64,000 bases of DNA. It comes from Octopus vulgaris (lineage: Eukaryota). Each line of letters begins with the position of its first letter. Position 1 is the first letter of the stretch. Where the stretch lies: positions 178,002,001 through 178,066,000 of the forward strand of contig OX597814.1 in the NCBI GenBank assembly GCA_951406725.2, read 5' to 3'. The position numbers and the translations under genes were made by a program. Shown here piece by piece: positions 4,560 to 59,455 of this stretch. The notes below the pieces were generated by a model that searched no databases, had not been told where the DNA came from, and saw only the letters and a program-made list of their open reading frames with translations.

Positions 4560-6520
4560 CGAATATTAAACAAAGTAATATTGAAGGAACAACAGTAGTT
4601 GTATGCATGCAAACCAAACAATTCCCAACAAGAACGCCCCTGGACCTGATGGGGTCGAGCGCTTTTGATTGATGAAGTCGACGTCATTACATGAACAAAT
4701 CTAGCTCAAATGAATGACATGTTAAACAACTAGGCAGAGATACCCATATGAATAACAGAGGGCGGGACCGTGCTAAAGACTACGCAGTAGATAATTAAAG
4801 ACATATCCTGCTTGCCACTAACGTGAAACTTTATGACTGGAATAATATCTAGGATCAAGTATACGATTCGTGAGGTGAATGAACTTCTACCAGAGGAAGA
4901 GAAAGGGTGTAAAAAGAAGCGCGACATTACAAAATATTAACTGCTGATTGGTAAAACAATTCTTGTGGATTGTAAAAGCAAACAAGAATTTACAAATGGC
5001 ATGGATGAAATATAGTAAAGACTGCGACATGTCTTTCGCAGCTGGATATTTGAGTACCTGAAATTTAATCAAGTACCAGAAAATGTATTTAGGTTTTCCG
5101 AAAGATAGACTTATAAATGTACATCAGGCTAGCTGGAAAACAGAGTTAAATTCTTGCACGGTTGGCATGTGAGGTATATTTCAGGGAAACAGCTTATCGC
5201 CACTCTTATTTGTCATCTGCATGATTCTCTCTGATCCAAGTCCTAATAAATGAGGTGTGGACTAGATGGTATGACGATTAGCCATTTGTTATTCATGGAT
5301 GATTTAAAGCGATTTGGCAAAGATGAGGACGAAATTGACAGTTTAGTACCTACTATGAAATTATTTGATAGAATATTGGGATGGGATTTGGGATTTAAAA
5401 GTGTGGCATTATAACCCTGAAACATGGAAAACTAACAAACAGTAAAGGGATTGAGGTTGCGAATGGTCAGATACTAAAGGAGTGGGAGAGGAAGGATACA
5501 AATATTTGGGAGTTTTTGAGTTTGAAAAGATGAAGGAAAAAGAAATTAGGGAGATGTTCAATATAGAAAATCTCAAGCGGTTGAGACATGCAATGTCGTC
5601 TAAATTGAATGAAAGGGATACGATCAAGTCACCGAATACATGGGCTGTGTCCCTCATGCGCTACTGGGTAGGATATATTAAATGGAAGAAAGACGAATTA
5701 GAATGTATTGAGAGGAAATCTAAGAAATTGATGACAATGCATAAAGAACTCCAGCCAAAGAATTATGTTGCCAGACTTTATGTTAGAAGAACGAAAGGAG
5801 GTAAAGGACAAATAAGTTGTGAAAATTTTGATGAAAGTGAAGAAAACGTCCTAGCTTGGTATCCTTAAAATGCAAAAGGTAGCATAATGTCAAATGTAAG
5901 AGTCTGCAATATAGTGAAATCTGTTGATGTAGTAACACCGAATGAATGAAAAAGTGAAAAAAAAACTTGAAAAATAAATGTAAGGACAAAATTATGAACA
6001 AGAGATAAAGTAGGCATTGATTGGTCGAAGAGTTTGTTGTGGTTTAGAAATGTCGATCTGAAAGGATATACTGGGACTCCGGTTTGCAGCTCCCAGGAGC
6101 AAATTATTCAAATTGTGTGAACAGAAATCAGAAGACGTGTTAGAGAACAGCAAGTTTAATCTTTTGTTGGACTTTACCATTCAGTGTTGTAGAATGATTG
6201 AGGCAAGAAAGCCAGACAATATAATCTTTAACAAAAGAGACACAAATGATCAATATCTCTATCTAAGGAGATTATAGGTTGAAAGATAAAGCGCACGTAA
6301 AGATGTAGAAGTATACGTCACAGAAAGAAGAGGTGGGGAATTATGGGACATGAAAAAGTTTGAATGATTCCAGTTGTTATCGAAGAATTGGGATACACAT
6401 AGAATAGTTTCGAGGACAGTGTTAATAAAATCGGAATTGATGCAAGGTTACAGGTCATGCAGAAGACAGCACTTCTACGTAGAGTAAGTATTTTAAGGAA
6501 AATTTTGTCTACGCAAGGCA
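4560..6520 (+). mobile_element. Decayed non-LTR retrotransposon, R4/Dong-like (RT plus C-terminal restriction-like endonuclease), with stops, frameshifts and an internal deletion
   Basis: Motifs read by hand in the expected order: IPNKNAPGPDGV (4621), GIFQGNSLSPLLFV (5173), ISHLLFMDDLK (~5278-5310), EGYKYLGV / NTWAVSLMRY / RLYVRRTKGGKG (ORF 5482..5868), FTIQCCRMIEARKPD (~6173-6217), MQKTALLRRVSILRKIL (6457). Confidence 0.9.
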
Positions 6521-8172
6521 GAGATAAGAAAGCATTAAAGGACTTTGTCAACTTGTCGAATGTTTTTCTGCTTTACTTTTTTTTTCTAATTAGATTTTCC
6601 CCTTTTTTTTTCTTTTTTTCCATTTCATCGGCAGTATTATGCTTACAGCCAACATAGTGTACACAATATTATTTGTATTACAAAACTGAAAAAAGCTGTG
6701 TTCAAGACGTGAGAGAAAGGAGCAAGTGTTAGAATATCACATATGTCTTTCGAATGAAAATCATTATATCATTACGATCTTCAGCATCGTTCTTTCTGTT
6801 GACATCTTTACAGTAGCCTATACTGTATTAAATACGTGTCGAATCATAATAGCACGATTTAAAAAGGAGAAAAATGACTTCCCTCTTATATTACTATATT
6901 TCTCCGTTTATTCTATATATCAACAGCCTCAAAGTTACATAAAAGACATGCAGTCATGTGTATATATATATGTATTATTTACGTACATACTGTGTGCATA
7001 TATGAGATGTATGTGTGCGAATACAAAAGTTAACGCGTATGTATCCCATACAATTCACGAGAAACAATATTATGGATTGCATACCCATGTGCGAATATAG
7101 GTATATATAGGTATGCGTGTGTATATCTTGCAGATGAACAAACTGAGCATTCCTAAATTTGTATGGAGAAAATGACATCCTTCCTTTTACGAATCTCGAA
7201 TCCTTCCTTACTGCAGCAGCAGAATCTTTTTATGTTTGAGTGAATTTCGGTATGTCAAAATATCGATTCTTCCATTTCAATAGCATTTCATTTCTCTCGC
7301 CCGTTCTTCTACCATATATCTCTATTCTATAATCTTTGTTTTCAAGTCTTTTTTGATCATTCCTCTTGCAATGATAATATTGCAGTGGCTTGTGCTAGGA
7401 ATTGCATTTCTTTGCATTCTTATCTTAGTTCAGTTGACTCAAGAAACCCCATCATCCGTTTTTACACATTTTACATTGCATTATCTTTCAAATACTTTGT
7501 ATACTTTGTCATGATGTATTCTATCTTTCGCTTGGACTGTTATAACCTCAAGCCGATTCTTTTCTCTTTGTGATTCTGTTTCTTAACAATGATGAGCAAT
7601 TCAGCCATTGGATCAATAAAATTGAACTTATTTCTGTGCGAGAGTTGTTTACAAAAGCCGCTGATTTCTTCATTAGCTTTGCAAAATTTAGAATGTGCAA
7701 TTGAAAACAGGGAAATCTCGGTAGAATATTTGTCAAAATATATGCATTCATTTTGCAAGAGTATTTTTTACTTTTTTTCTTCTTTTGCTCATCTTTAAAC
7801 AAACATGTTGGGATCGCAGCATTTGATGATGAATAATATTATTTCGAAAATCGGTGCTAATTGAAAGAAGACATAAAAAAAACAAAACAAAATATTAAGT
7901 GTAAGCATTTCTAATACTATTTTGAGCATACTTTATTGATTAATCCTTTCCTTTATTTATAGAAAACAATTAAATATAGAGATTTAAGAAAAAACAAACA
8001 TATTGCAACCAAAATGTCTGTGAGAGCCGGAAGCTAAACGAATCTCCGAATCCATAGAATATAAATGAGTCTTTCATAAACTGTGCCAAAGAGTCGTGAT
8101 GACATTGGTGAAGTTCAACATATGCGCAGAAGTAAAAACATATGGACATATGTAGATGCGTGTGAGAATGTG

Positions 8173-8291
<119 letters not shown>

Positions 8292-8325
8292 GCCATGATA
8301 GACAGGTAGCCACTATACACATTTT

Positions 8326-8476
8326 TTTCTCTCCTTGTTTCTTTCTGTGTTCCTTTCTATGGACGAGTGTAGGCTCGAAACGTAAAAGATATTTTCAATT
8401 CCTGAGCGTTATACTAATACACCTATTTGTTTTTTACACAAGCTGTTTTCATCTTTTTCTTTTCGTAAACTCTCCC

Positions 8477-8478
<2 letters not shown>
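8326..8478 (+). repeat. Short interspersed repeat (PLE terminal-repeat-like) between microsatellites
   Basis: GCTCGAAACGTAAAAG...GAGCGT...CTAATACAC...TTG block has a diverged reverse-complement copy at ~55835-56000; flanked by (GA)n and (TA)n. Confidence 0.55.
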
Positions 8479-8532
<54 letters not shown>

Positions 8533-8852
8533 TATTAGAGAGTTATCCACTATGCGGATAACTCTAGTGCTAAAAATAGCTCCGAAGCAACCACAGAAAT
8601 ATATATATATATATATATACATATACAAGCATACTTAGAAATACACACATGTATATATGTCACTTGTATTTCACCTGTTGTGGTATATTTCTATCATTGT
8701 CAAACGTTATATAAACGCATCAAAACACATTTACGATTCACTTTGCTGCTCTGGTAGAGAAAGCAGTACATTACCATATCTACATATATTCTGACTATCT
8801 ACCGTGAAAGTAATATATCCGATATATCCGTAGAGGTAAATGCATACATACA

Positions 8853-9553
8853 TACATGTCAACATGATGTTTAGCCTCTCTTGGACTAGTGAATGCTACA
8901 TCACAATTCGACGTTGATGCATTTACAATCCCAAAACAGGAAATTGGTATGAAATATCGAACACGCAAAAGACACAGTGAAGTCTGGTGTATCTAAAATG
9001 TATCCGGAAATGTAGATTATGGGAAAGGCAATGTCATTAGCAGCTGCACGAGAATTTCAGAAATGTACTACCTCCTCATGCGACACGACGTTGATGCAAA
9101 AAGAAATATACAATGCTGTTCGGGAAAAAAGAGTTTTGAAATATATATAGGGGATGCCTTGTGATGGAAAATATACACAAACATGAACGCTAGGATCACT
9201 AGTGGAACATTCCCGTTAACATTCTGTCAAATATAAACATAACAGGCCGATATATTGTTTGGTACAGATGAGGAAATGTATGCACCGTCATACCGATCCG
9301 TTGTTCTGCTGCTGTGAATATATCTTCGAGAAGGAAAGGATAATAGGATAACTACATACAACTGATTCGAAATCTCCAGCTTCTATATTCAGTTTAATAA
9401 ATTCAAATTTATACCAATAATAATCAGTGCAGTTGGTTTTGTGAGTAAGTGCCTATTTGACAATCTGGACATGTCAGGATTTCCAGAACAAGAGATCAAC
9501 CAACTGACGCGCTCATTGTAAATAAAATCTGTAAGTGGAATAGTAGAAATATA
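8853..9553 (+). mobile_element. 3' fragment of a second REL-endonuclease non-LTR retrotransposon (R4/Dong/NeSL-like), decayed
   Basis: Translates piecewise to SLSWTSECYITSQF, KQEIGMKY, KCRL..VISSCTRISEMYYLLMRHD (CCHC knuckle plus RHD), WNIPV, KHNRP(DI), QLIRNLQLLY, KFIPIIISAVG, KSVSGIVEI. Confidence 0.8.
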
Positions 9554-9555
9554 CT

Positions 9556-9935
9556 CTCTTTAACTTGTTTCAGTCATTTGAGTGCGACCATGCTGGATCA
9601 CCGCCTTTAGTCGAGCATATCGACCCCAGGACTTACTCTTTGTAAGCCTAGTATTTATTCTATCGGTCACTTTTGCCGAACCGCGAAATTACGGGGACAT
9701 AAACACACCAGCATCGGTTGCCAAGCGATGTTTGGGGGCCAAACACAGACACAAACACATACACACACACATACACATATACATATATATTTCCGTCTAC
9801 CAAATCCACTCACATTTTCTTGGTCGGCCCGAGGCTATAGTAGAAGACACTTGCCCAAGGTGCCACGCAGTGGTACTGAACCCGGAACACGTGGTTGGTA
9901 AGCAAGATACTTACCACACAGCCACTCCTACGCCT
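9556..9935 (-). mobile_element. tRNA-derived SINE (octopus OR-like family)
   Basis: Minus strand begins GGAGTGGCTGTGTGGTAAG (A-box-like), then CCGGGTTCAGTACC (B-box-like) and GGCACCTTGGGCAAGTG; homologous copies at 36776-37056 and 19958-20040. Confidence 0.85.
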
Positions 9936-10504
9936 ATATATGCAAAAATTATCGCAACTTTAAAATGTGACAATGTTTTTGTCTTCTACATTCCCACGAT
10001 AGAACTTCGTATCTGTTTTAGAAATTAGCTCCTTCCTCAAAGGAAGAATTCGAATAATTCAAAATAGAAGATACCACACACGTCCTTAGATATATACATT
10101 CACACTGACATACACATACTTTTATTGATTATGGAATTTGATTTTTGTCTAGATGAGCCTTTTTGTATTTATTTTATTTATATATCACTGTAAAAGTTAT
10201 TACACTAGATCACTTACCCTACTGTTTTATTGTGACCTATCACTAATAGATTCTCACAATAAAGTCGCTTCGGTTAGCCTATGGAATATTTATCTATGTG
10301 ATTACTACAGGACATCATTTCCGGGAATTAATTTAAAATTCTATTTCTAATGTTGATTCCGTCGATTCAAGTACTCTCCCAAATTTATTGCATAGCAAAC
10401 TGTGTAGATATGTTGTTGATAGTTAGGTAGCTTCCGTAAAAGGCCATTCACAATGCTCTCTCTCGAGTTTTCTCTCTCTGTCTCTTCCTCTCTCTCTATG
10501 TATG

Positions 10505-10569
<65 letters not shown>

Positions 10570-11044
10570 TTAGCTTTAATTTATTTACAAATGTCTCTTC
10601 TGGGTGTATTTATTTCATTCTATATATATACACAAATGCACACAACGAACATAAATAAGCAATTATAAACACGCACACACACGCGCACACACAAGCGCAC
10701 ACATATACACACACGTATATGTATGTATATTTGCGTTGTTCTTGGTATTATATTATCTTTCTACTGTTTGATTATTCATTAGATTATTATTTTGATCAAA
10801 CGCCAGATTTCATTTTATCAGTGCAATGATAGAGATAAGGTCGCTACCTCCTTAACTGAGATAATATCAACTGCCTTACTTTGAACTAGGATAAATTTCA
10901 GAAGGCAATAAAACTGAAGATTATCTGAATGGGCAACTATATGAAAAGTGCTTCGTGATATACTGAATACTTTAAATTGCCTTCAGAAACAAAAAATAAA
11001 ACTTTTCCTCACGTACTTCAAAATATAATTAAAAAAATAAATAA

Positions 11045-11097
<53 letters not shown>

Positions 11098-13011
11098 AAA
11101 CGAATTCCGAAAGAATTGTTTGTATAGCTGATAGTACAGGAAACATGCCCTCAGCCATGCAAACACCTCGTTTGTCTATTTTTTAAATCTCTTATGAAGG
11201 AGAATTTGCAGCAATTTTAAAATTTATAGTCCTTACGGATATTCAACTTATGCGACATTTCACGATCTCGTCTTTCAAGAAGTTTTAATTATAATATTTA
11301 AAATTAATGCGAAAATAATATTTTAAATTCATTGTTTTATTTTGTAACTTCTACAGCATGGAAATTAGTTGTGAATTTGAAATATTTTTGCGGAAAAATG
11401 TTCATTATAAAATAATTAATAGGCTATATATCAAGTGATATTGCCTTTTGTTTCCTAAACCACAAATTTAAATACCTTCTCTTAGGAGAATTTCCTACGA
11501 TATTATCTTAGTTGGTTATATGAATGACTGAGTGAGGTTGAAAGAAACGGGAAAGAAAATAGAAAACAGAAACGGACGTAGCTATATACTGTAAAAGAGA
11601 TTGGCTGAAAGAAATAAATGATTGAAAACAGTATGATTGGTACATTTTGGGGTGTGTTAGTGTAATAGTTGTTTTAGAATCTTAATTACAAATGATTGTA
11701 ACTCTCGTTAAGTACTAGACTCCTCGTATATCTACTAAACTTATACATTGATGGTAGAAATTATTGACCTGATGGGTCATATTCATCCAAGAAATGCTTC
11801 ACAAATAAAAGGGAAAATTGTAAACTAACTTGCAAAATTTATAAAAAGAAAGATTGGTTTTTCGTACTCGTTGGTATTAGTGATAGTTTCCCAATTTCTT
11901 GCTTTATTATCATAGAAAAGAAGTTACCATATAGAGTAATTGATTGGAAGCTGAGGAAATGTTCTTTTTCTACATTTTATGAGAAATACTTATTATTTAT
12001 TGTTGGCGTTACCAAATAATATTGGTTTATATTCCGAAAATATGCCAAACTCTGTATTTGTAAGAGTAGGAAAATCGTTAAGGATGATATTCGTGCTACA
12101 AATACATATGAGATATTGTGCTAATTTAGCTAATCAACACTCTTATAAACAACAAACTAAGTAAGTAGGTATCATATAATATTTTTTATCAACAGAGCAA
12201 CAATAGCCTTGTTTAAGTTTTAAATTTCTTTATGGTACCTAATTTGTTTCCAAAATTACATCATGCATTTAAAGTACATCTTGTTTGATATACTCTTCAG
12301 TATCTCAAGTCAATAATATACAAAACTACTATTCAACTACTGCCGTAGTTGAATAATATTCGTAAGGCCACTGCACATTTCAGAGCTTGTTGCTAATTCA
12401 GTTCTTAAGCAAATCGAAACTGTTAACATGTTGCAGTGGTTAGTCCCTAGCTACGTTTTGGCATAAAACAAAATCGAGATTTGATCCAGTACAAAAAGTT
12501 TACATCCAAATTTGTAACAACGTTATGGGAGAATAAGTAACGCCACCAATCAAGTTTAGACCTGAATAACATTTTTATTTTAAAAGCAAAATATATTTAT
12601 CTTAGCTTCAGTGATAGAAGAAATCATGAAGAATCTCATAGTTTTGTTCACATGCAACAAATGCTTGTATCAAAAATATCATGAAATTAGATACAAGTAA
12701 TGCAAAGATTTGGATTTAAGTATAATAATATTTTTTTAATTTTAAAAACAAACTATATTTTATTCAAGCTTAGATGATAGAGCTGAATGCGAGGAATTTC
12801 ATGCTATCAATCTCATGCAATGAAGTTTTAAATGAAAAACGTTATGAGTGTTTCTTTCTCAAATTTTATGAATATAGTAGTTCTATAAGGGGACATTTAA
12901 TATATGTCACCGGCGTCATTGAGGTAAGGAAAACATTATCAACAGCACTGCTAATTGACACATTTGACATATTATCAACTAGCATAATAACATAGCCTGG
13001 AAAAAACGTGG

Positions 13012-13201
13012 ATTACATGGAAAAATGCGAGCAAGAGAAATAATATTCTTAAGATTATAAACCTGGAAAGTAAAAATGTCCTTATTCTGTACTTAACCAG
13101 ATGTAATTAGTTGTCCTGAACTTTTCCAAGTGTAACTTGTAATTTTGCAGGTTTGTAATCTTAAGAATATTATTTCTCTTGCTCACAGTTTTCCATGTAA
13201 T
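13012..13201. repeat. Inverted repeat with 54-bp arms and an 82-bp spacer (MITE-like)
   Basis: 13012-13065 matches the reverse complement of 13148-13201 with 3 mismatches. Confidence 0.8.
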
Positions 13202-13893
13202 AATATACAGAATATAATAGGAAATTTTTCATTGACTGTAATTTTCAGCTTTATGAAAAAGTAATAAGGGGTTGCTGAATAATTTAATCAACACATATTG
13301 GATCAAGTGAAACAAGTATTATGATGTTATATATTACAGAATTGTCAGTGGAAAATTTACTTTAATTTGTATATCTCTACCCTTTATAGGTACCAAAAAA
13401 TATCCCCCCTTATGAAACATACTTTCTAGGAAGTTAATTAATTTATGCGCTACTAACATGTGTAACCTCTCTGAAATACATCAGTAAACTCGCATCAATC
13501 TTCGTCTGGAAGCAGAGATCCTTTAAAATGAAAATGATTGATTAATGTATCGGAATGCAGCTCAAAGTTATTCTTTATGGATTTGGTTGCAAGTGCCATT
13601 GAGTGATTGAAAAGAGTTTCCTGTTTAAATGCTTTCACATGCACTTCGAAAGTCCTTGTCGGAACATAGTGGAGAAAAAATGAGTTTTTTTTAGATTTTC
13701 TAGTGAAAGCACAACTTAAGTTTCATGTTCAAAAGAAAGAAAAAATAATTTATAACATGTGAAAGAATACAGATTTAAACTTTTTGCCTAATGACATTAT
13801 CCTCCCACATCGTGAGTTCGTCTTAACAGATAGATTGTCTAGTTACTTAGTACAATTATCACATAGTTTCGTTCGATAAAAATGTTCAACAAT

Positions 13894-13924
<31 letters not shown>

Positions 13925-14518
13925 TACAATTTATATTCTGTTCCATACAAAGCATCATAAATCATTTATGTCTGAATTTGAATTATATTTTTAGTAAGTT
14001 CTTTTTCACAATCGTGTGTAAACACACAGAAAGTTTGAATTAACTTTATTTTTAAGAATTAATCTTATTAAAGAGATAAAGTCGCGTACACATTTATTTA
14101 ATGTAAAGAACTATAGAATTTCTAATCACGCATTATCGCGTTAATATTGGAACTTCATATTTTTGTTTCTCCTCTTACCTTTCCTTTTCTTATACTTCAA
14201 GTATTTCGATAAAGATTACATTGTTGCTCTTTTATTGAGTGTTCGTGATAAGAGCTTATCACACCTTTGAGATGAAGATTCCGGAAACATAAAGAATTTA
14301 CTGGAAACGCTAATCTAAGAAAAGTAAATTCAATTTTACAGTAGTAGAGATGTCTGATTTACAAATGAAATTTTTAGTTTGAGAATTTCCATTTTTCACT
14401 TTGTCTATTGAAAGATAATACAAAAAAACTTAAATATAAACTTATTAGAGAAACATAATATATACGCCCATTCTTTCTTTCCATTTTTTCTCTCTCTCTC
14501 TCTGTATACACACATACA

Positions 14519-15380
14519 TACAGGTGTACGAGTTCAATTTTATGATTTTTGATGTCTGTTTTTTTTTCCTCGGCAACACTTTTGATGTATTGGTGAACAT
14601 TCAATGCGCTGGATATCTTAAAGAGCAAAGGTGTAGTTTAGTAAAAGTTAGCTGACATGGTGGGGGAGTGGAATCTGAGTGAATATTGGAAAAGAGTTAC
14701 GTGTGTCATGAAAATTCGTGCCGGCTATCAAATTGACTGCTCTTCCCTTCTCCATAAACATTGCAAAAGCTGTAGGACAGTTGCAACGGAGATTACAAAG
14801 TTGAGGCCGCAGAAGGGGACGGTGAAGGTGTTCTGACACCATCTGCGCGCGGAAATTCATCCAGCAACTCATAAACAGAGCCTTAAGCTCAATTCAGACG
14901 GCTTTGTGAAGCAGCTGAAACCTTGGCCTAGAGGGGTTTGCCGCTGGAAGGCCAGATATGTGTCAACAAGATTCAGCTCCTTGCAACCCCTTCGGAAAGG
15001 ATCAGAATGTGTTGTCTTAGAATTTCTACGACTTCACCAGCCCCAATTTTTAACGACCTAATTCCCTGGATTATAATCCCAAGGGATACAATGTATTGGG
15101 CGCGATTCTGAAAGACACCGACAACGCGCCTGCACCACCAAGGCTGAGCTAGAGGTCAAGGTCAAAGAGGTGCTTGAATGTCTTCTGAAGGGCACTCTGA
15201 GGAACGCATGCGCCATTTCTGGACACGATTTCAAGCCGTGCTGGAAGATAGAGGCGGCTAGTGTGGACGAACTGTTATCTCCTAGCCATAATTTAGCTCA
15301 TAATTTTGATTTTTTGGAAGGAATATTGTATTTTCTTTTCCTTTTATGGAAACTGTCAAATTTAGCCTGTATACTCAGTA
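14519..15380 (+). mobile_element. Internally deleted, decayed Tc1/mariner-superfamily transposon, maT (DD37D)-like
   Basis: QQDSAPC at 14964, then F*RPNSLDYNP (WPPNSPD.NP-like), TTKAELEVKVKEV, LRNACA, RFQAVLEDRGG; loose inverted termini TACAGGTGTAC.../...GTATACTCAGTA with TA at both ends. Confidence 0.7.
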
Positions 15381-15599
15381 CGTAAATATATGCGTGAATA
15401 TATATGCATATATGTGTGCCTGTGAGTGTGTGGATGTTTGGGCATATGTGTATGAGCGTTTTTATGTGAGTTTGTATGCACACGTAGTTGAAAGAAAATA
15501 AAAAATATATTGTACACTTTTACAAATATCTCTGGGATTTGAAAATCCTGTTGTTGACAATACAGTGATTGTCAGGCTCAGCTGGCGGTAGATTCGATC

Positions 15600-15870
15600 T
15601 AGGGACTTTTCCTCTCCCAGGATTTGTTCCTGGCATCCTCAAAGCTGGAGATAGCTTAGTAGTATGAGCTTCTCCACTTCAGTGCTACCAACGCCCATAT
15701 CTTCAGATTTATCTTCAATATTTTCAAACTGGTCTTTAGATAGTCCTTATACGGAGCAGGGGGCGACTTTGATACCTGACGCCAGATCGAAGATCTCCAT
15801 AAAACAGGATGCTCCCGAGGTAGCAGCATTTGACAAAGCATCCAGATAGGAACTGTTTAGCGTTTACAAT
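15600..15870 (-). mobile_element. RTE-clade LINE C-terminal fragment
   Basis: Joining the two ORF-track frames gives ILFYGDLRSGVRYQSRPLLR + YKDYLKTSLKILKIN..W, matching the RTE LYGEL..G.R..G.P..RYKD.LK.SLK tail. Confidence 0.7.
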
Positions 15871-15948
15871 AGGAAAGTGATTTTGTGTGTTCAGGTGCTG
15901 GATAAACATGCACAAACATGTGCACAAATCAGCCAATACCTCTGAATA

Positions 15949-15983
<35 letters not shown>

Positions 15984-16022
15984 TATGTATATATGCGTAT
16001 ATATGTATATCTATATCTATCT

Positions 16023-16121
<99 letters not shown>

Positions 16122-16201
16122 GATATACATATACATACTTACATATATACCGGAGTAAACAAATATTTGCGAAACAAGGTGGGAAAAATAGTACTCGAAT
16201 A

Positions 16202-16251
<50 letters not shown>

Positions 16252-16722
16252 GCATATATACCCATATGAATAGGCGAATGCATATATGGAACTGTGGGTG
16301 TGTTATATTCATAAATACATGCATGTATCTATTTAGGTTCGTAAGTAACATTTGGGAAACAAACAAAGGAATGTGGCATTGATGATGAATAGGATTGAGT
16401 TGCCAGGTGAAGAGGAAATCACAGACTATTATACAAAATACCGATCAACAAACAAACATACACACTTATATACGTGCGCATGTATGATATAATCTTGTAT
16501 AGGTGTGTACTCACGTTACTCTAGGTATGGTATATTAGTTGCAATAAGTTGAGTAAAGTAGCTTATATTTTGAAGGACGTCGTTCACTCCGCATGTGTGC
16601 GTTTGCTGAATCCAGAATTGTTTTCGGCATACATAGGTACATACATACATACGTACATACATATTCATGCATATATATATACATACATATACATAAATAT
16701 AGATACATACACATACATATAC

Positions 16723-16769
<47 letters not shown>

Positions 16770-16890
16770 CATATATATATACATATATACATCTATATAT
16801 ACATATGTAAACACATATAGTTAGATGCGGTAAATATATATATACCTATCTTCCTATCTCTCTTTTTCAGTATCTCCTTTACTCTCCCCC

Positions 16891-16930
<40 letters not shown>

Positions 16931-17339
16931 GTTTTTGTATGCGTGTATGTGTTTTTGCATGTGCATTTTTGTGTGTGTGTACATATATATAAATGTGTGT
17001 GCGTGTGTGTGTGTGTGTGCACAGATATGTATTTACATGTGTATAACTGTTTATATATAGTCATTCATATACAAGTGCGTATGTAAACTATGTTTGTTTT
17101 TATGTTTGTGGGTGACGGAAACAAATATTAGAAAAAGTTTGGAAATTATAAACTAGAGTTTTTAAATAAATGTGCCTGCAAAGAAAACACAGTTCAAACT
17201 TTTACAATTTGACGTGTTTTGTGTTTCAAATATATTTTCTTTTTATAATTCTGAACAGCAATCTATCTGTTGTAAGTTTCTATAATTTTACTCTTTATTC
17301 ATCTTCCCTGTTTGTGTACACACACAAACACACCTATGT

Positions 17340-17383
<44 letters not shown>

Positions 17384-17699
17384 GTACATATATATATATA
17401 ATTGTATGAGTATATATATATATCTTTATCTATTTATATATACATGTACATATGTATTCAGATATATAAACAGAAAAAAATCGTACAAAAACTATTCACT
17501 TAATCATCGAAACACCCACACTTAGAAGATTTTTTGCAGTTACCTTCAAAATACTCTCTTTATATATAGTTGTGCATATACATATAATGCAATTTTTTAT
17601 GTATGTAAATGTATATGCATGTCTGCGTGTGTCTTTATATATCGGAAAACAACTCATTAATCTGATATCAAGAATATATCAACATCATAAATGGTAACA

Positions 17700-19431: not shown

Positions 19432-19957
19432 TACATAAAAATATCTTAAGAATGAGACCCAGGTTCGAAATTCCCCCAAGACACCTGATGAAGGCTGGAG
19501 GGTATATCAGCCGAAACGTTGTGTTAACAACAAACAAGATGCGGACAAATATCCGTCAAATGTAAATAATGTAAATAATGTACATAATTCATCTCTTAAA
19601 TATAGAACGGTATCAATAATGACTACTTTCGAGAAAAATCGGCTGCAGCAATGGGAACACGAGCTGCACCTTCTTTTGTGAACCTGATAATAGGCTATCT
19701 GGAAATGAAACTTTACCAGAAAACACTCGAGAAATATGGAATCTCCTTTTTAACCTACATTCAAAACAACTGGAAAAGATATCTCGATGACTGCTTCATC
19801 CCCAATAATGAAATTGTAGAAAAACTTAATGAATTCAAAACACTTCTAAATGGAATAAAGGAAAACCTACAATTTACGATAGAGTATAACCAGTAGCAAC
19901 TAATGTTTTTAGATATCCTTTTTACGAAAATCGGGAACAAAGTGGAAACAGATATCA
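19010..19957 (+). mobile_element. Penelope-like element remnant: inverted terminal-repeat region followed by RT fragment
   Basis: ORF 19651..19896 MGTRAAPSFVNLIIGYLE...WKRYLDDCFI...LQFTIE, continuing *QLMFLDIL..VETDI, is PLE RT; upstream hammerhead motif and fold-back; truncated by a SINE fragment at 19958. Confidence 0.85.
19480..19525 (+). ncRNA. Minimal type I hammerhead ribozyme motif
   Basis: GACAC-CTGATGA-A-GGCTG(gagggtatat)CAGCC-GAAA-CGTT-GTGTT: stem I GACAC/GTGTT, stem II GGCTG/CAGCC, palindromic stem III ACGT. Confidence 0.75.
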
Positions 19958-20359
19958 GTGTGTTTACGTCCCCGTTACCAAGCTGTTTGGCAAAAGAGAC
20001 CGATAAAATAAGTACTAGGCTTCCAAAGAATAAGTCCTGTATGTTAAATATTGAAGGCTGATTCAATCTATCAGGAGATAATCTGACCATTTCTGTCTTA
20101 AAAATGACTAATTAGATGATTATGCAAAAATGCAATGTGTGGAAGAGAATAGTTAAATTCAAAGGTGTGTGATTATATACGGTATTCCGTATTCTTCTAA
20201 ACAGAATCGTAGATAAGATGAAATATTTTTTGAGAATCTTCAGATAATAATGAAGTCATTAAGTATTGGAGATAGCCGAATTATATTATTCTAACGCAGC
20301 ATAAATAAAACAACTTCTTCATCTATATTTGATTAAAAACAAATATAGAAACAGGAGCA

Positions 20360-22348: not shown

Positions 22349-22944
22349 ATATTTCTTTATTGCCTACAAAGGGCAAAACATAGAGGGGACAAAAAAGGGA
22401 TTAAGTCGATTACATCGACCCCAGTTTAGAACTGGTAGTTATTTAATCGACCCCGAAAAAATAAAAGGCAAAGTCCATCTCGACGAAATCTGAACTCAGA
22501 ACGTAGCCGCACACGAAATACCTATTTCTATTTCTTCACTACCCACAAGGGGCTAAACACAGAGAGGACAAACAAGGACAGACAAACGGATTAAGTCGAT
22601 TATATCGAGCCCAATGCGAAACTGGTACTTATTTAATCGACCCTGAAAGGATGAAAAGCAAAGTCGACCTCGGCGGAATTTGAACTCAGAGCGTAGCCTC
22701 AGACGAAATACCTATTTCTTTACTACCCACAATTGGGCTAAACACAGAGAGGACAAACAAGGACAGACAAACGGATTAAGTCGATTATATCGACCCCAGT
22801 GCGTGACTGGTACTTAATTTATCGACCCCGAAAGGATGAAAGGCAAAGTCGACCTCGATGGAATTTGAACTCAGAACGTAATGGCCGATGAAATACGGCT
22901 ACGCATTTCGCCCGGCGTGCTAACATTTCTGCCAGCTCACCGCC
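22349..22944 (-). mobile_element. tRNA-derived SINE (octopus OK-like family) with one head and three tandem ~190-bp bodies, 17-bp TSD
   Basis: Head GGCGGTGAGCTGGCAGAA at the right end; GAGTTCAAATTCC..GAGGTCGACTTTGCCTTTCATCC body three times; TTAACATTATTA(G/A)ATAT at 22332-22348 and 22945-22961. Confidence 0.9.
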
Positions 22945-31581: not shown

Positions 31582-31639
31582 TAGTACATACATACATATA
31601 TATATACTTATATGTATGCGATACATACATACTTTCATT

Positions 31640-32757
31640 TATATATGGAGAAAAGGTAATTAAAATTCATCAGAATATCAGATCTATCGGACTTCCAAAG
31701 AGGTCGAATTGTCTGTGTTCCTATGGCAGGCGCTTGTGTAACCAAAGCAGCCGAAATGTTTGGTGTATCAAGAAGTACTGTCTCGAAAGTTATGACAGCC
31801 TTCGAGAAAGAGGGGAAAACCTCCTCGTCGAAACAAGACTCCGGAAGAAAACCCAAAATTTCAGATAGGGACCATCGGACTCTTATGTGAATTTTTAGAA
31901 AGGATGACAAAAGTACAGCTCCCGAAATTTCTGCTGAGCTTAATGACCACTTCGAGAACTCAGTTTTCACAAAAACTGTTCACCGGGAGCTGCACAAAGC
32001 CGAATTGAATGGGAGGGCTGCAATCAGAAAACCACTACTTTTAAAAACAAATATTGCAAAGCGTTTTGAGTTCAGTAAAAACCAGATTTGGTCCCTAGAG
32101 CAGTGGAAGAATGTTCTTTTCTCGGATGAGTCATCCTTTACCTTATTTCCCACCACCGGCCGAATATACGTGTGGAGACAGCCAAAGGATGCATTTGACC
32201 CAGCCTGCCTTCTTCCAACTGTTAAACATGGAGGAGAATCTGTGATAATCGTGGGGGTACTGTATCTTGGAAATCCGCCGTTCCAATGGTTTTCCTTCAT
32301 GGCAGAAGTAATAATCAAAACTATTTAAGCATTTTATCTGATTAAATTCATCCTAAGGTTACGGAACAATTTCCGGAGGGAAACGCAATCTTTCAGGATG
32401 ATGATGTACCAATTCAAACAGCTAAATTTGTTACTGAATGACACGAGGAGTATTCTAGTGAAGTTGGACATCTTATCTGGCCACCACAGCTCCCAGATCT
32501 CAATATTATTGAACATTTATGGTGCATTTTAGAAAAACAAGTAAGGAGTCTATCTTCCTCTTTCATCACTACAAGAACTGGAGACAGTTTTAGCTGAAGA
32601 AAGGACAAAATTTCCTTTGAAGACAATCCAAACTTTGTACGAGTTCATACCTCGTAGATTTCAATCTGCAATTACTGCCAAATGCGGTCCTACCCTATAT
32701 GAAAAGAAATTTGTTTCAAATTTTAAGGTGTTTCCATTATTTTGTCCAACTCCTGTA
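31640..32757 (+). mobile_element. Tc1-like transposon remnant: near-complete transposase pseudogene with DD36E spacing and right TIR
   Basis: SDLSDFQRGRIV...GVSRSTVSKV (HTH), SGRKPK, WKNVLFSDES, TVKHGG, FQDDDVP...WPPQLPDLNIIEHLW; start codon mutated to ATA (31675), stops and frameshift; ends TTATTTTGTCCAACTCCTG-TA. Confidence 0.92.
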
Positions 32758-32787
32758 CATATATGTGTATATATACGTGTATGTATA

Positions 32788-32837
<50 letters not shown>

Positions 32838-32984
32838 TAAGAGAGTGGTCACTATATTGCTCACTCTAGCACCAGTTAATCCAAAAGGTTTCAACCACGA
32901 AAATACATGCTTACCATGAAAGTCAGTACGATTGTTAGCTCACACGGACAGGGCAAATAAAAAATAACAAAAATACAGATTATT

Positions 32985-33062
32985 TTGGGACAATTGTTTC
33001 GCTATTAATGAATTAAATGTAATTTTACTTACAAAAAAATCCATTTGTAGCTCGTCAGCCAA
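32985..33062 (-). ncRNA. Type I hammerhead ribozyme motif (array copy 1)
   Basis: Reverse complement reads TTGG-CTGACGA-GCTA...TAGC-GAAA-CAATTG-TC-CCAA. Confidence 0.85.
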
Positions 33063-33519
33063 GACTATCTGGATGAAATCCACTCAATCACACGCCAGAT
33101 TTTACCATAACGATAAATACGCGTGTGGTTCAATTGATTACATCCGACGTTATAATTCAAATGCCCCAACCAACAGCGCGCCAAACTCTCACGGAAAACA
33201 AATACAGCATTTAGAAATAAATGCAGCATAATTATAATTAATTAATAAGGGTGAGAGAATTAGATACTAATTTAATAGTATATTTATTCAACACCAAGTG
33301 GCCTAGTGCTTCGAGAAACCTGGATTATTATAATATTTTATAACATATTATAATATTTTTACAAAATAAATATAAGAGAGTGGTCACTATATTGCTCACT
33401 CTAGCACCAGTTAATCCAAAAGGTTTCAACCACGAAAATACATGCTTACCATGAAAGTCAGTACGATTGTTAGCTCACACGGACAGGGCAAATAAAAAAT
33501 AACAAAAATACAGATTATT

Positions 33520-33598
33520 TTGGGACAATTGTTTCGCTATTAATGAATTAAATGTAATTTTACTTACAAAAAAAATCCATTTGTAGCTCGTCAGCCAA
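33520..33598 (-). ncRNA. Type I hammerhead ribozyme motif (array copy 2)
   Basis: Same motif as copy 1. Confidence 0.85.
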
Positions 33599-33952
33599 GA
33601 CTATCTGGATGAAATCCACTCAATCACACGCCAGATTTTACCATAACGATAAATACGCGTGTGGTTCAATTGATTACATCCGACGTTATAATTCAAATGC
33701 CCCAACCAACAGCGCGCCAAACTCTCACGGAAAACAAATACAGCATTTAAAAATAAATGCAGCATAATTATAATTAATTAATAAGGGTGAGAGAATTAGA
33801 TACTAATTTAATAGTATATTTATTCAACACCAAGTGGCCTAGTGCTTCGAGAAACCTGGATTATTATAATATTTTATAACATATTATAATATTTTTACAA
33901 AATAAATATAAGAGAGTGGTCACTATATTGCTCACTCTAGCACCAGATAGTC

Positions 33953-34032
33953 TTGGCTGACGAGCTACAAATGGATTTTTTTTTGTAAGTAAAATTACAT
34001 TTAATTCATTAATAGCGAAACAATTGTCCCAA
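33953..34032 (+). ncRNA. Type I hammerhead ribozyme motif (array copy 3), predicted cleavage after C34028
   Basis: TTGG 33953, CTGACGA 33957-33963, GCTA/TAGC stem II, GAAA 34017-34020, palindromic ACAATTGT, GTC triplet, CCAA. Confidence 0.85.
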
Positions 34033-34489
34033 AATAATCTGTATTTTTGTTATTTTTTATTTGCCCTGTCCGTGTGAGCTAACAATCGTACTGACTTTCA
34101 TGGTAAGCATGTATTTTCGTGGTTGAAACCTTTTGGATTAACTGGTGCTAGAGTGAGCAATATAGTGACCACTCTCTTATATTTATTTTGTAAAAATATT
34201 ATAATATGTTATAAAATATTATAATAATCCAGGTTTCTCGAAGCACTAGGCCACTTGGTGTTGAATAAATATACTATTAAATTAATATCTAATTCTCTCA
34301 CCCTTATTAATTAATTATAATTATGCTGCATTTATTTCTAAATGCAGTATTTGTTTTCCGTGAGAGTTTGGCGCGCTGTTGGTTGGGGCATTTGAATTAT
34401 AACGTCGGATGTAATCAATTGAACCACACGCGTATTTATCGTTATGGTAAAATCTGGCGTGTGATTGAGTGGATTTCATCCAGATAGTC

Positions 34490-34567
34490 TTGGCTGACGA
34501 GCTACAAATGGATTTTTTTGTAAGTAAAATTACATTTAATTCATTAATAGCGAAACAATTGTCCCAA
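34490..34567 (+). ncRNA. Type I hammerhead ribozyme motif (array copy 4), predicted cleavage after C34563
   Basis: CTGACGA 34494-34500, GAAA 34552-34555, same stems as copy 3. Confidence 0.85.
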
Positions 34568-35327
34568 AATAATCTGTATTTTTGTTATTTTTTATTTGCC
34601 CTGTCCGTGTGAGCTAACAATCGTACTGACTTTCATGGTAAGCATGTATTTTCGTGGTTGAAACCTTTTGGATTAACTGGTGCTAGAGTGAGCAATATAG
34701 TGACCACTCTCTTATATTTATTTTGTAAAAATATTATAATATGTTATAAAATATTATAATAATCCAGGTTTCTCGAAGCACTAGGCCACTTGGTGTTGAA
34801 TAAATATACTATTAAATTAGTATCTAATTCTCTCACCCTTATTAATTAATTATATATATATATATATATATATATTGTACATATATATATTATACATATA
34901 TATATAGGTATGTATGTAAGTATGTATGTATCTATCGCATTTTTTGTTGTATTTGAATATTCAGTGACCTATGTTCCTATAATTTCTTGAAGTGAAATAT
35001 CACCGTATTTGGAGGACAGATTTTCGTTGTACTCAATATATAACGCTGGCAGAATGAAGCGAACAGATTATGAATTAACTTGCTCAGTAAACAGACAGAA
35101 TGTTTATAACCCCCCCCCCCCCGCCCACCCAAAAATGGAGAACCCCCAAATGCATCTTACCTTAAGTGAATATATTAGAATATGTTTTTCGTATTACTTT
35201 CAAGGGTCAAAATGGGATTATGTTGGTTGTATATTCACATATTTATGTGAATTATGTCTTATCAAAAGCATGCTTCTACGTCTCTTTCTTCCTCACTATA
35301 TACACACACACACGTATATGTGTGTAT

Positions 35328-36132: not shown

Positions 36133-36531
36133 TATTTCTTTATTGCCCACAAGGGGCTAAACATAGTGGGGACAAACAAGGACAGATAAACAGATTAAGC
36201 TGATTACAACGACCCCAGTGCGTAACTGGTTCTTAATTTATCGACCTCGAAAGGATGAAAGGCAAAGTCGACCTCGGCAGAATTTGAACTCAGAACGTAA
36301 CGGCAAACGGAATACCTATTTCTTTACTATCCACAAGGGGCTAAACACAGAGAGGACAAACAAGGACAGACAAACGGATTAAGTCGATTGCAACGACCCC
36401 AGTGGGTAACTGGTACTTAATTTTAAAGGCAAAGTCGATCTCGGCGGAATTTGAACTCAGAACGTAGCGGCAAACGAAATACCGCTAAGCATTTGGCCCG
36501 GCCTGCTAACGTTTCTGCCAGCTCACCGCCT
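36133..36531 (-). mobile_element. OK-like SINE with a head and two tandem bodies
   Basis: Head CTGCCAGCTCACCGCC at the right; body repeated with the junction GAATACCTATTTC near 36310. Confidence 0.9.
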
Positions 36532-36775
36532 ACATAGATAGGTAGGTAGGTTAGTTAGATGTGGCCTGTTATGTAGTGCGGGTAGAGAAAATATTTCTAA
36601 ATATTTTGAAACGATCTTCGTATATTACTAGCCAAACGAAGACAGCAGTAAAGAGTTTCTCGACTTAATAGATATAGCAACAAATTCTACCTTAAAACTT
36701 ATTCTAATGCTTTTCTGAAATATAACATATTCTTACTTGAAACCATGAGATTTTGTGCCTATCATATTTTTTCAT

Positions 36776-37056
36776 TCTTTTACTTGTTTTATCATTTGAC
36801 TGCAGCGATGCTGGAGCAACACCTTTAGTCGAACAAATCGATCCCAGGGCATATTTTTGTAAGCCTAGTACTTATACTAGCCTTACGTTTGCCGAACCGC
36901 TAGTTTACGGGGAGGTAATCACACCAACATTGGTCTAGTGATGGTAGGGGAAGGAACACAGCTACAAAAACATAAACCGAAGCTATCGCAGAAAACAGTT
37001 GCCCAAGTTGCCACGCAGTGGGACTGAATCCAGAAACAAGTTGTTTGGAAGCAAGA
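36776..37056 (-). mobile_element. Diverged OR-like SINE
   Basis: Homologous to 9556-9935 (TTTGCCGAACCGC, TTGCCCAAG.TGCCACGCAGTGG.ACTGAA). Confidence 0.8.
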
Positions 37057-37062
37057 TCAAAA

Positions 37063-37258
37063 TAATCCTATCTTCTATAGACACAAGGCGTGAAATTTAG
37101 TAGGAAGGGACTAGTCGATTACATCAATCCCAGTGCTAGACTGGTCCTTATTTTTATTGGCTCCGAAAGGATGAAAGGCAAAGTCGACCCCGGCAGTATT
37201 TAAACTTCTAACGTAAAGACGGCGAAATGCCGCTAAGCAACTCTGTCATCTCGCCGAC
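37063..37258 (-). mobile_element. OK-related SINE subfamily with an alternative 3' tail
   Basis: GAAAGGATGAAAGGCAAAGTCGACCCCGGC core; tail related to 47175-47392 and 54111-54296. Confidence 0.8.
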
Positions 37259-48197: not shown

Positions 48198-49030
48198 GAT
48201 GAGTGTATTTTTCCCTTGTTAACAATTAACACGGAAAATATAAATAAATAATTACCAGGATAGCAAAAACAAAAACACAAGTAAAGAGGTGGTAACTCCT
48301 TGTTTTTAAAGGTAGAAACTTCGGGTTTACATGGAATTTTTTGTATAATATATAAATAAATAAATGAAGTTTAACGCAGGTCTAAATCAAATACTTTTAC
48401 TTTCGACACATGGTTCGAAATTTTCACTGATATTATTCAAAACAATAAATGTTATAAACAATACAATCTTCTCTTCAGGGAAGTGAAAAAACGAAACTCG
48501 TCAAAAAGACATTTTAACAGAGAATGATGGATATGTATAATGATTTGCTGAACGCTATTAATATTATTTGAAAAAAACGTCATATGATATAACGTCAGAA
48601 GTAGCCTATAGAGAGAGGAGGGATATTTATAGTGAATGTTAAATATAACAGAAAATAATGTTTAAATTATATATGATGATAGAGATTACTTATATGAACT
48701 ACAGGTATGTTTTTGCCAATGTTTACATCGGTATGCACGCTCTATAAGCGTGTTTACTAGGGCATTTTTAGAAAAAAATAATGAAAAATAGTTCGGAATT
48801 ACAGAGAAGACAGAATTCCTTGCATTTGTCATAAGGTATTCAGATTGAGAGAATCAACCATTCTAAATTAAAATTGTTCATTGTGGTCTTTTAGATCCCA
48901 AATTCATTTACTGAGTCCAGTACTGTTACGTTTATTCATATCCCTAAATGTTGAGTAATGGATAGAAATTATTTTAGATAACTCTAACGACGTGCTTCCT
49001 ATGTAAAATCGTACTTTATTACGAGTATTG
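48196..49030 (-). mobile_element. Penelope-like element 3' end: GIY-YIG endonuclease fragment plus terminal repeat with decayed hammerhead (48399-48484)
   Basis: Minus strand RFYIGSTS...HYSTF...STGLSK*IWDLKD, LEWLIL, PYDKCKEFCLLCNSE, LVNTLIERAYRCKH; downstream CTGAAGA-GAAGATT...AAATTTC-GAAC-CATGTG-TC-GAAAGT. Confidence 0.85.
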
Positions 49031-49036
49031 ATCATA

Positions 49037-49385
49037 CATCATCATTTAACGTCCATTGTCCAGGCTGGCATGGATTGGACGGTTTGACCAGGGCCAGCAA
49101 GATGGAAGGCTGCACCAGACTCCAGTCTGATTTCGCATGGTTTCTACAGCTGGATGTCCTTCCTAATGCTAACCCGTCCGAAAATGTAATGGGTACTTTT
49201 TCCTGCTACCGGCATGGGTGCCATTTGCCTGACTACGATTTCACTTGTCTTAATGGGTGTTCTTTTTCAGTATGGCATAATACCAATTGTTCTAAGTCAT
49301 TCGCCATTGCTTCCGTGAGGTCCAACACTTGAAAGGTGCTTTTGACGTACCACCGGAATCAGCCACTTTGCCTCCTTGAGGCCCA
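49037..49385 (-). mobile_element. SINE with V-domain-like core and (ATG)n-type tail
   Basis: CATCATCATTTAACGTCC...GCTGGCATGG.TTGGACGG tail and GGATGTCCTTCCTAATGCTAACC core (cf. GGATGCCCTTCCT..CGCCAACC). Confidence 0.7.
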
Positions 49386-57829: not shown

Positions 57830-59455
57830 GGAAAATAAAAGTTGAAAATGCACAGAGAATAGTTAAAATATTTTTATTATTATATTTAAAGATTTAACCG
57901 TATTCACAATTTACATTGATTTTCAAGAACTTGAAATAGTAAGACGTGGCATATGACACACCTGTCTTGTTTCTGACTAGTGTTTCAAGCTTGCCCTATT
58001 TTTGTAGGGAATTCAGGGCTTTAATTAGTATATGCTTTGGTAGAAAATAGTCACATCACTGGTATTACAAATTTTCTTTAGGTTCCCCGCTACCTCCGTG
58101 TGTCAGGATCAAATGACAATGTTGAGCGTCGTAAGTTAAATCAGACACGGTTGACTGAACATATCTAGTGGCTGTACCAGTCAATCTTGTGAATGCTTTC
58201 TGCCAAGTGTTTGTACAGAATGAACACGTGATTGACTTTAGAACCTTCGTTACGTTTCCCACTACGTCCATGCGTTAGTGTCACATGACAATAAATTTTG
58301 AGCCTAAAATGAAGGCCGACATGGTTGAGTGGACATATTTAGTTACAATCGAGGCAAACCAAATTTAATCTTTCTGATGGGAGAGTGGACAGTAGTTGAA
58401 CATATGTAGTCGAGTGACTAACGTTTAGGTTGTTAGTTGTTTAGGTTCCTCATGTTAAGTGGCAGAATATGTTTCTGTATGAATAGTTATTTGTGTATGT
58501 ACTCTGTTTGTTAAATCTTGGTTTTTACTTTTGTATGAAAGTGTTTTCTTTGTTTTTCCTTGCTACATCTGTGGTATTCACTGATCATAGGTAGAGTGGG
58601 AAGACCTGAAATTTGGGGGACTTAGTTTTTGCACGTATGTCTATTTGTCCACTCAGTGCAATCTATCTTTTGCTGGGGTCTCCTATATTTTGTCGATGAA
58701 TGGGCAGTCTGATTCATAAAGGAAGCCTTGTTTGACCCATGTAATCTTCATTACATCCTTGACATTTCATAGCATATATTAAATCCTTTGTAGAATATGT
58801 AAAATGATTTTTTACGGTAAAAAGCTGCCCTGATTTTGAATTTTTATGTTGTATCTTCAATAAGGTTGTTGCAATTGGGCGGCCACTGTTTTTGACTGTT
58901 AGTGTAGAAATTGTCGAAGGCAATTTAATATTTGTGAGAAATGTTTTGAGGGATTTTGATTTTCTTTTACTTTTGATTATTTTGTGTGTTTCGAATGCTT
59001 GCTTCATTCTTGGATCTTGTCTTATTAGTGGGATGTTCTAGTGGGTAATATTATAAACCTCTGCATTTCCTGGGTTGTGAGTTGTAATAAAGGGTAGAAT
59101 AAGACTGACACGGTTGACTGAACATGTCTAGTGGCAGTACCAAACAATACTCTGAATGTTTTCATGGGAATTTCTCGCATAAAATTCCAGAGAGAATTGA
59201 TATAAGTTTCATCACTAACACAAGGAAGTAGCAAGGATTCTACAAAGATTTCCAAGGCCAGTCATGTCACTATCCTGTACCAATCAAATCCTATTCAAAA
59301 TACATACTAATTTAAGCTTCAGCTTTTTGAAAATCAGTCTAATCTATGAAACCGGTTAAATTTTTAAATATAATAATGAAAAATATTTTTACTATTCTCA
59401 GTGCAGTTCCAACTTCTATTTTTCCTGTATTTCTACCCATGTGGAATAAAATAAC
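57828..59455 (-). mobile_element. Penelope-like element remnant: GIY-YIG endonuclease fragment between inverted terminal repeats, in (TA)n
   Basis: ORF 58714..59007 ends HFTYSTKDLIYAMKCQGCNEDYMGQT, continuing IRLPIHRQNI; 57828-57935 is the reverse complement of ~59320-59430; direct repeat 58144-58200 / 59106-59163. Confidence 0.85.

Follow-up and report, generated by a model that had tools for sequence, protein, structure and literature searches.

A dispersed 535-nt hammerhead repeat with two fixed 3′ ends in Octopus vulgaris, a likely PLE-mobilised retrozyme

The window, a 64,000-nt stretch of Octopus vulgaris contig OX597814.1, contains an array of a 535-nt unit at 32829–34854, with (TA)n tracts on both sides (Table 1). 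Two tandem arms lie back to back within this TA microsatellite, giving an arrangement that is both tandem and head-to-head; both outer ends are 3′ ends, and the 5′ ends of the arms meet mid-array. Predicted cut sites are spaced 535 nt apart on the plus and minus arms alike. The unit has a GC content of 32%, its copies are told apart by three substitution sites, and the T runs read 7, 8, 9 and 7 from left to right across the array. The longest open frame, measured on the unit tripled end to end, is 73 aa. A prior sequence-only reading had described an ORF-less, tandem-plus-inverted array of this unit within (TA)n, carrying four complete hammerhead motifs and copies that differ by three substitutions and the T run; all of this was confirmed, the motifs by a scan of both strands of the window.

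Directly left of the array lies a decayed transposase remnant (~31600–32757; frames 31891–32328 and 32545–32919), which we take to belong to a Tc1/mariner-like family, and the left (TA)n begins at its end. Elsewhere in the window are decayed PLE fragments at 19615–20001, 48704–49038 and 58504–59100, two resembling the 781-aa family described below and one Hydra-like, and a SINE-like repeat of ~185 bp, both dispersed and tandem (22387–22880 and 36133–37232).

Table 1. Coordinates of the array in the window and of related loci
Feature	Position	Strand	Comment
Left (TA)n target microsatellite	32759–32828		
Minus arm, ~2.1 units	32829–33946	−	from near monomer position 114 (5′) to site A, ~160 (3′)
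Hammerhead motif 1, extended stem I included	32975–33072	−	predicted cut after 32989
Hammerhead motif 2	33511–33608	−	predicted cut after 33524
Head-to-head (5′–5′) junction	33943–33946		4-nt microhomology CCAG common to both arms; minus arm starts at 33946, plus arm at 33943
Plus arm, ~1.7 units	33943–34854	+	from monomer position 452 (5′) to site B, ~291 (3′)
Hammerhead motif 3	33943–34042	+	predicted cut after 34028
Cut-to-cut monomer, 535 nt	34029–34563	+	predicted highly self-paired
Hammerhead motif 4	34480–34577	+	predicted cut after 34563
Right (TA)n target microsatellite	34855–34906		
Hammerhead pattern matches	33957–34028, 34494–34563	+	
Hammerhead pattern matches	33594–33524, 33058–32989	−	
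Hydra-like autonomous PLE, young (L262)	G000:C17:64141500–64149000		
Other hammerhead repeat loci	L049:6550–7150, L050:~6000, L059:90–560, L084:200–700, L089:1900–2400, L121:1800–3200, L156:~2600		

We searched for type I hammerheads with a pattern comprising CTGAnGA, a 4-bp stem II, GAAA, stem III, NUH and a 4-bp stem I. It matched exactly four times on the two strands of the window, always within the array, and all four motifs carry the CUGAnGA, GAAA and NUH core together with stems I–III; they are intact as a statement on sequence. They are not of the minimal form that had been ascribed to them: only stem III is minimal (2 bp, an 8-nt palindrome), while stem I has a closing helix in addition to its 7 positions, and a hairpin of ~45 nt extends stem II. 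The proposed check against the Rfam hammerhead model came back negative: at E ≤ 5 Rfam gave 31 matches, each to a miRNA or snoRNA model and none overlapping a hammerhead motif. This miss is likely due to the long stem II insertion. The motif is not a chance occurrence, since the pattern has 2,166 matches genome-wide and none in the reversed control.

The fold of the ribozyme appears to have been maintained. Covariation was scored in 14 chosen representatives, which are related sequences from a few subfamilies and therefore record few independent events. Four of the 11 stem I pairs are altered on both sides between subfamilies, stem I is paired in 98.1% of cells compared with 29–39% in slid controls, and the covariation score was reached in none of 500 shuffles. 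The free core position of the hammerhead varies and the remainder is nearly invariant across copies. These compensatory changes in stem I indicate that selection has probably acted on the ribozyme fold. Older subfamilies (L335:1920–2492, L148 and L126) have more compensatory changes, which in L335 extend to stem II and to the first stem I pair. One unit with many small deletions (L119:7037–7476, 79% identity) lies inside an otherwise 97% array, and its hammerhead core is gone.

Folded as a circle, the majority monomer is predicted to reach −146 kcal/mol (z = −7.4 relative to 40 dinucleotide shuffles). Stems I and II form in the predicted minimum-energy circular fold and the core is mispaired, which counts against the explanation preferred below. 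The long stems are kept in the seven monomers compared, with a covariation term that is not favourable (+0.59).

The window array is one locus of a young, dispersed, many-copy family with hundreds of insertions. A unit search of the 2.8-Gb genome found 931 candidates; scoring 40 of them yielded 237 matches, among which full units are 98–100% identical, with one exception at 95%. The earlier view of a young, non-autonomous element is supported. Older subfamilies of the repeat are ~72–83% identical.

We read 99 loci, each with 6.5–15 kb of context, in three sets: 19 from the top matches, 40 combining 31 picked successively along contig C1 with 9 top matches, and 40 chosen by an end pattern. The arm-end analysis covered 95 young-subfamily loci, excluding L112, L124 and L126 (old), L223 (complex) and one separate fragment in L193. 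With the base after the predicted cut numbered as monomer position 1, 74 of the 144 arms end at a site B (~291) and 69 at a site A (~160–164, a few arms extending to ~195); the end of the remaining arm was not assigned by the parser. The two sites lie ~130 nt apart on the monomer, at ~34190 (A) and ~34319 (B) in the window, both within the domain closed by the monomer's long stem in the predicted fold. The motifs immediately before them are almost invariant between subfamilies. In the older subfamilies represented by L335, L148 and L126 a ~25-nt AT-rich insert is missing, so that the tail is ~100 nt there.

Simple two-armed loci invariably have one A end and one B end (52/52). In the first two sets, 35 of the 56 young loci are two-armed and all 35 follow this rule (34 scored by script, L101 by eye), for which the chance under independent end choice is about 3 × 10⁻¹¹; the third set contributes 17 of 17 simple two-armed loci, alongside 22 single-armed loci and the complex L223. 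Traces of the other site, a few bases long, are present at the 5′ junction of several single-armed loci (e.g., L192, L197 and L202). Genome-wide, exact site-B ends number 776 and exact site-A ends on the forward strand 361, and A and B ends stand roughly one to one; the reverse-strand site-A count of 1,077, inflated by overlapping matches, was not used. The arrays stop at two fixed sites and not at arbitrary points within the unit, and the sequence-only reading, which had the array starting and stopping mid-unit, overlooked the most informative feature of the locus, namely a pair of fixed ends of which each arm takes one. Two loci depart from this rule and count against the best explanation, namely L223, where extra arms are present and one ends at position 398, and the old-subfamily locus L124, whose plus arm ends at neither site.

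The insertions have the features of PLE-type integration, with incomplete tandems, a 5′ copy in inverted orientation, a tail confined to one end and a microsatellite as target. A target-site duplication is unreadable within (TA)n. We rejected L1-style twin priming, in which an arm halts at the other's primer, as site-B arms show no clustering immediately past site A.

Differences within and between loci bear on the template. Within loci we counted 153 substitutions in 113,332 bases (0.135%), compared with a mean of 1.6% among 41 locus consensuses, 6% of pairs being identical. In L038, L049, L120 and L138 a variant is present in all covering units of both arms and absent from the other sampled loci. 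Both arms of a locus are one haplotype, a result that a homogeneous linear multimer would also give. Arms longer than one unit make up 85 of 143, the longest being 6.8 kb (~13 turns); arrays reach ~13 units, and the hammerhead is complete in consecutive units on both arms in the window. The 5′ ends are distributed round the monomer and none of the 143 starts at the cut site. These lengths and start positions exclude a linear cut monomer as the template.

Two mild enrichments of 5′ ends are not required by a pure circle and count against the best explanation: 14 of 143 lie no more than 15 nt from the cut, where 8 are expected (P = 0.03), and 11 of 143 fall at positions 67–77 (scan P = 0.04). 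An early impression that the cut site is a preferred 5′ end (10 of 87 arms at positions 1–15) was weakened: three of the ten arms starting there cross the cut site by 3–11 nt, and the unbiased C1 subset has no excess near the cut (5/40 within 50 nt, P = 0.32). An edited template was likewise rejected, the locus-private fixed variants not being A>G-rich (1/6). We consider the template to be circular RNA with some confidence, preferring a circle to an uncut multimer because the ribozyme is conserved. The earlier proposal of copying from a circular or multimeric RNA by a PLE RT is partly supported: the insertion scar is of PLE type, and the choice that it had left between the two templates leans indirectly towards the circle.

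Li et al. (2026, 10.64898/2026.07.22.740005) delimit non-LTR retrozymes as tandem repeats in which two or more successive units each contain a complete hammerhead. The repeat has this arrangement, and is also without coding capacity, dispersed, multicopy, low in GC and self-paired. It is likely a new member of the animal non-LTR retrozymes, likely mobilised by a PLE, with cleavage and a circle predicted. As in the retrozymes described in PMC7229834 and 10.64898/2026.07.22.740005, the units are non-coding and tandem with one type I hammerhead each, GC is below 50%, the predicted circle is self-paired, and autonomous PLEs coexist with the repeat. Unlike them, it is larger than the tested circles of 170–400 nt, has a long stem II hairpin, and has yielded no homology to a pLTR. 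The monomer had been thought unusually large, whereas consensus lengths of non-LTR retrozyme families span 51–972 bp (10.64898/2026.07.22.740005). Nor is the system new in kind, retrozymes having already been described as non-autonomous PLE derivatives. Of 57 Xenopus retrozyme families, 24 could be matched to known elements, in nearly all cases PLEs; not every retrozyme is homologous to a PLE pLTR. In vitro cleavage is reported for only one of nine Xenopus retrozyme dimers (10.64898/2026.07.22.740005), a point against the explanation preferred below.

We found neither this repeat family, nor a strict one-of-each rule in retrozyme arrays, nor tails of 130–150 nt in a literature search that had most subscription papers and Repbase outside it. 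Head-to-head arms with two fixed ends, as in the repeat, are likewise not described for retrozymes in the portions of the sources searched.

The closest structural parallels are with PLEs. According to Craig et al. (2021, PMC8557442), endonuclease PLEs and the Hydra clade share with the repeat partial tandems, an inverted 5′-truncated copy, a tail at one end, (TA)n targets and a hammerhead in the terminal repeat; unlike them the repeat has no ORF, and its tail is ~130 nt compared with the published 30–40 nt, the local Hydra-like family having ~150 nt. Non-autonomous Chlamys elements such as MRC1 are, in the same text, also multicopy head-to-tail insertions made by PLEs; unlike the repeat, they have 3′ sequence in common with their partners, and canonical hammerheads are missing from most Chlamys elements (PMC8557442). 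The purified Anolis Poseidon PLE cuts and extends both strands, and its RT has two internal start sites whose spacing equals the genomic tail (Frangieh et al. 2024, PMC11167929). The repeat resembles it in its two internal RT starts, AT-rich target and extension of both strands. In the Anolis element the start site has no apparent strand difference and the ribozyme is dispensable, in vitro insertion proceeding from unprocessed RNA with a dead ribozyme (PMC11167929), which also counts against the preferred explanation; the two ends of the repeat, by contrast, always differ within an insertion.

The repeat lacks an ORF for RT and GIY-YIG and is not an autonomous PLE. None of the 99 loci has a copy joined to a PLE ORF, which supports the initial reading, and no ORF adjoins the unit in the 1.5-kb flanks of 20 older-subfamily loci. 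With six proteins representing five PLE groups as tblastn queries, fragments turned up at distances of 81 bp to several kb from the arrays; in those inspected, microsatellite lies between. Several autonomous PLE groups in the genome target (TA)n. Tails of ~30 nt are found in a 781-aa RT–GIY-YIG family, which has an ORF upstream, and in two families related to it (L095 and L096); in the high-copy 781-aa family (L081–L094) the preceding, overlapping ORF is of ~479 aa and has no convincing Pfam match, and the hammerhead core appears degenerate. A very young Neptune-like PLE (L161–L191; copies 99% identical, open frames to ~1,200 aa) has a variant minimal hammerhead core and a single 3′ end site in the loci read.

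A fifth group is a Hydra-like PLE (L262:2045–5900, L271 and L303), which also occurs as 3.6-kb tandems. Its 899-aa open frame has a long low-complexity insert and the motifs RW(L), DKT, CxxC and CxH; the Hydra clade is described with RWK and DKT, and with CxxC and CxH close to the C-terminus, and by these motifs the group is a candidate Hydra member. In its pLTR hammerhead, stem II is ~50 nt long and stem III is an 8-nt palindrome; the PLE targets TA and has a tail of ~150 nt. All 14 scoreable loci with two TA-ended arms have one short and one long end. The Hydra-like PLE has the same design as the repeat in ribozyme, TA target, one-of-each ends and long tail. Identification of a partner by shared sequence failed, as the 781-aa, L095, L096, Neptune-like and Hydra-like groups all target (TA)n and none is similar to the unit. 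Comparison of the unit with the pLTRs of the five PLE groups sampled gave no significant match: 77 of 300 shuffles scored as high against the Hydra-like pLTR, with BLAST giving the same outcome, and 161 of 200 against the young Neptune-like pLTR. Each PLE protein search scored 150 of 6,136–17,469 candidates, and the true partner may therefore be unsampled. That a PLE moves the retrozyme is, in our judgement, very probable; a Hydra-type PLE is, on balance, the favoured partner.

We consider it probable that the repeat is a protein-free retrozyme put into (TA)n by a PLE that primes both ends on a 535-nt circle. The arrays would be transcribed and cut by their hammerheads, probably as dimers via the palindromic stem III, and the monomer would be ligated into a circle. 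A PLE RT–endonuclease dimer would then cut both (TA)n strands, one DNA end priming site A and the other site B, and each RT would travel round the circle over a distance that varies and can reach 6.8 kb (~13 turns). Joining of the two cDNA ends by microhomology would produce head-to-head arms, or a single arm where the other is very short or lost. More tentatively, this may take the form of double rolling-circle RT, with each subunit of a Hydra-type PLE dimer at its own start site on one ribozyme-made circle.

The same element and PLE footprint could instead arise from a linear, uncut multimeric read-through transcript, the ribozyme acting elsewhere or rarely. The indifference of Anolis PLE insertion in vitro to ribozyme mutants (PMC11167929) is consistent with such a template, as are source arrays of 10–14 near-identical units and the tandem 3.6-kb repeats of the autonomous Hydra-like PLEs. 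Compensatory changes have nevertheless kept the ribozyme fold in an element with no other task, and both arms can be long together (5+13 and 9+5 pieces), so that a copy begun at site B must pass through site A. Nor do the arms of the loci read contain a parent inversion junction or flank, L223 perhaps excepted, and we regard the linear template as rather unlikely.

It is improbable that the units are pLTR tandems or 5′-truncated ends of an autonomous PLE whose ORF-bearing copies went unsampled. Room for such copies is left by the 99 loci with long flanks, read out of at least 776, and by protein searches that scored 150 of 6,136–17,469 candidates each. Against this, units follow one another head to tail as many as ~13 times, an adjoining ORF is absent from the 99 loci and from the 20 older-subfamily loci, and none of the 12 loose ends listed (25 more lie beyond these) has an ORF-like continuation. 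Still less credible is insertion of monomers by retrotransposition followed by growth and homogenisation of the arrays as DNA through unequal crossover or gene conversion, as proposed by Li et al. (10.64898/2026.07.22.740005). This would account for homogeneity within loci, but leaves unexplained the private variants common to inverted arms, the near-uniform spread of 5′ ends, the arrays without internal differences (C9a: 0 in 6,836 bases) and the many two-armed loci with less than one unit per arm. Long reads may be chimeric where inverted repeats adjoin a long (TA)n, yet an assembly artefact of one unit, a worry raised at the outset, has negligible probability when dozens of loci repeat the architecture with junctions that differ, contigs of three of four runs contain the tandem joint and the units in the window are not identical to one another.

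The origin of tandem and inverted PLE insertions and the role of the PLE hammerhead are described as open in PMC8557442 and PMC11167929. If double rolling-circle RT is correct, the one-of-each rule would explain tandem, inverted and one-end-tail PLE structures generally, and the PLE hammerhead would gain a role. The link between retrozymes and PLEs has until now consisted of co-occurrence and pLTR similarity. With the class already known, the value of this family is as a test bed for tandem and inverted PLE insertion and for template form: it offers hundreds of young insertions with a sharp rule and an easily made 535-nt template, and a candidate partner with intact ORFs sits in the same genome, so that circle versus linear template and the identity of the partner are directly testable.

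None of the sequencing runs that contain the unit is on record as RNA, and 14 are guessed to be RNA. Contigs of three guessed-RNA runs cover the whole unit and have clustered A>G and T>C changes, which make up 5/15, 23/30 and 15/21 of the changed places, compared with 2/10 in a DNA-like run of another organism label. Such clusters resemble A-to-I editing on both strands and are a weak hint of transcription and editing. Dense A>G or T>C changes, resembling A-to-I hyperediting of the two strands of the repeat, occur in low-depth contigs over 34300–34830 of the window in runs X1, X5 and X13.

The genome contains at least six further hammerhead-bearing repeat families (loci in Table 1). Most have a long stem II and a palindromic stem III, many lie in (TA)n, and some are tandem or head-to-head.
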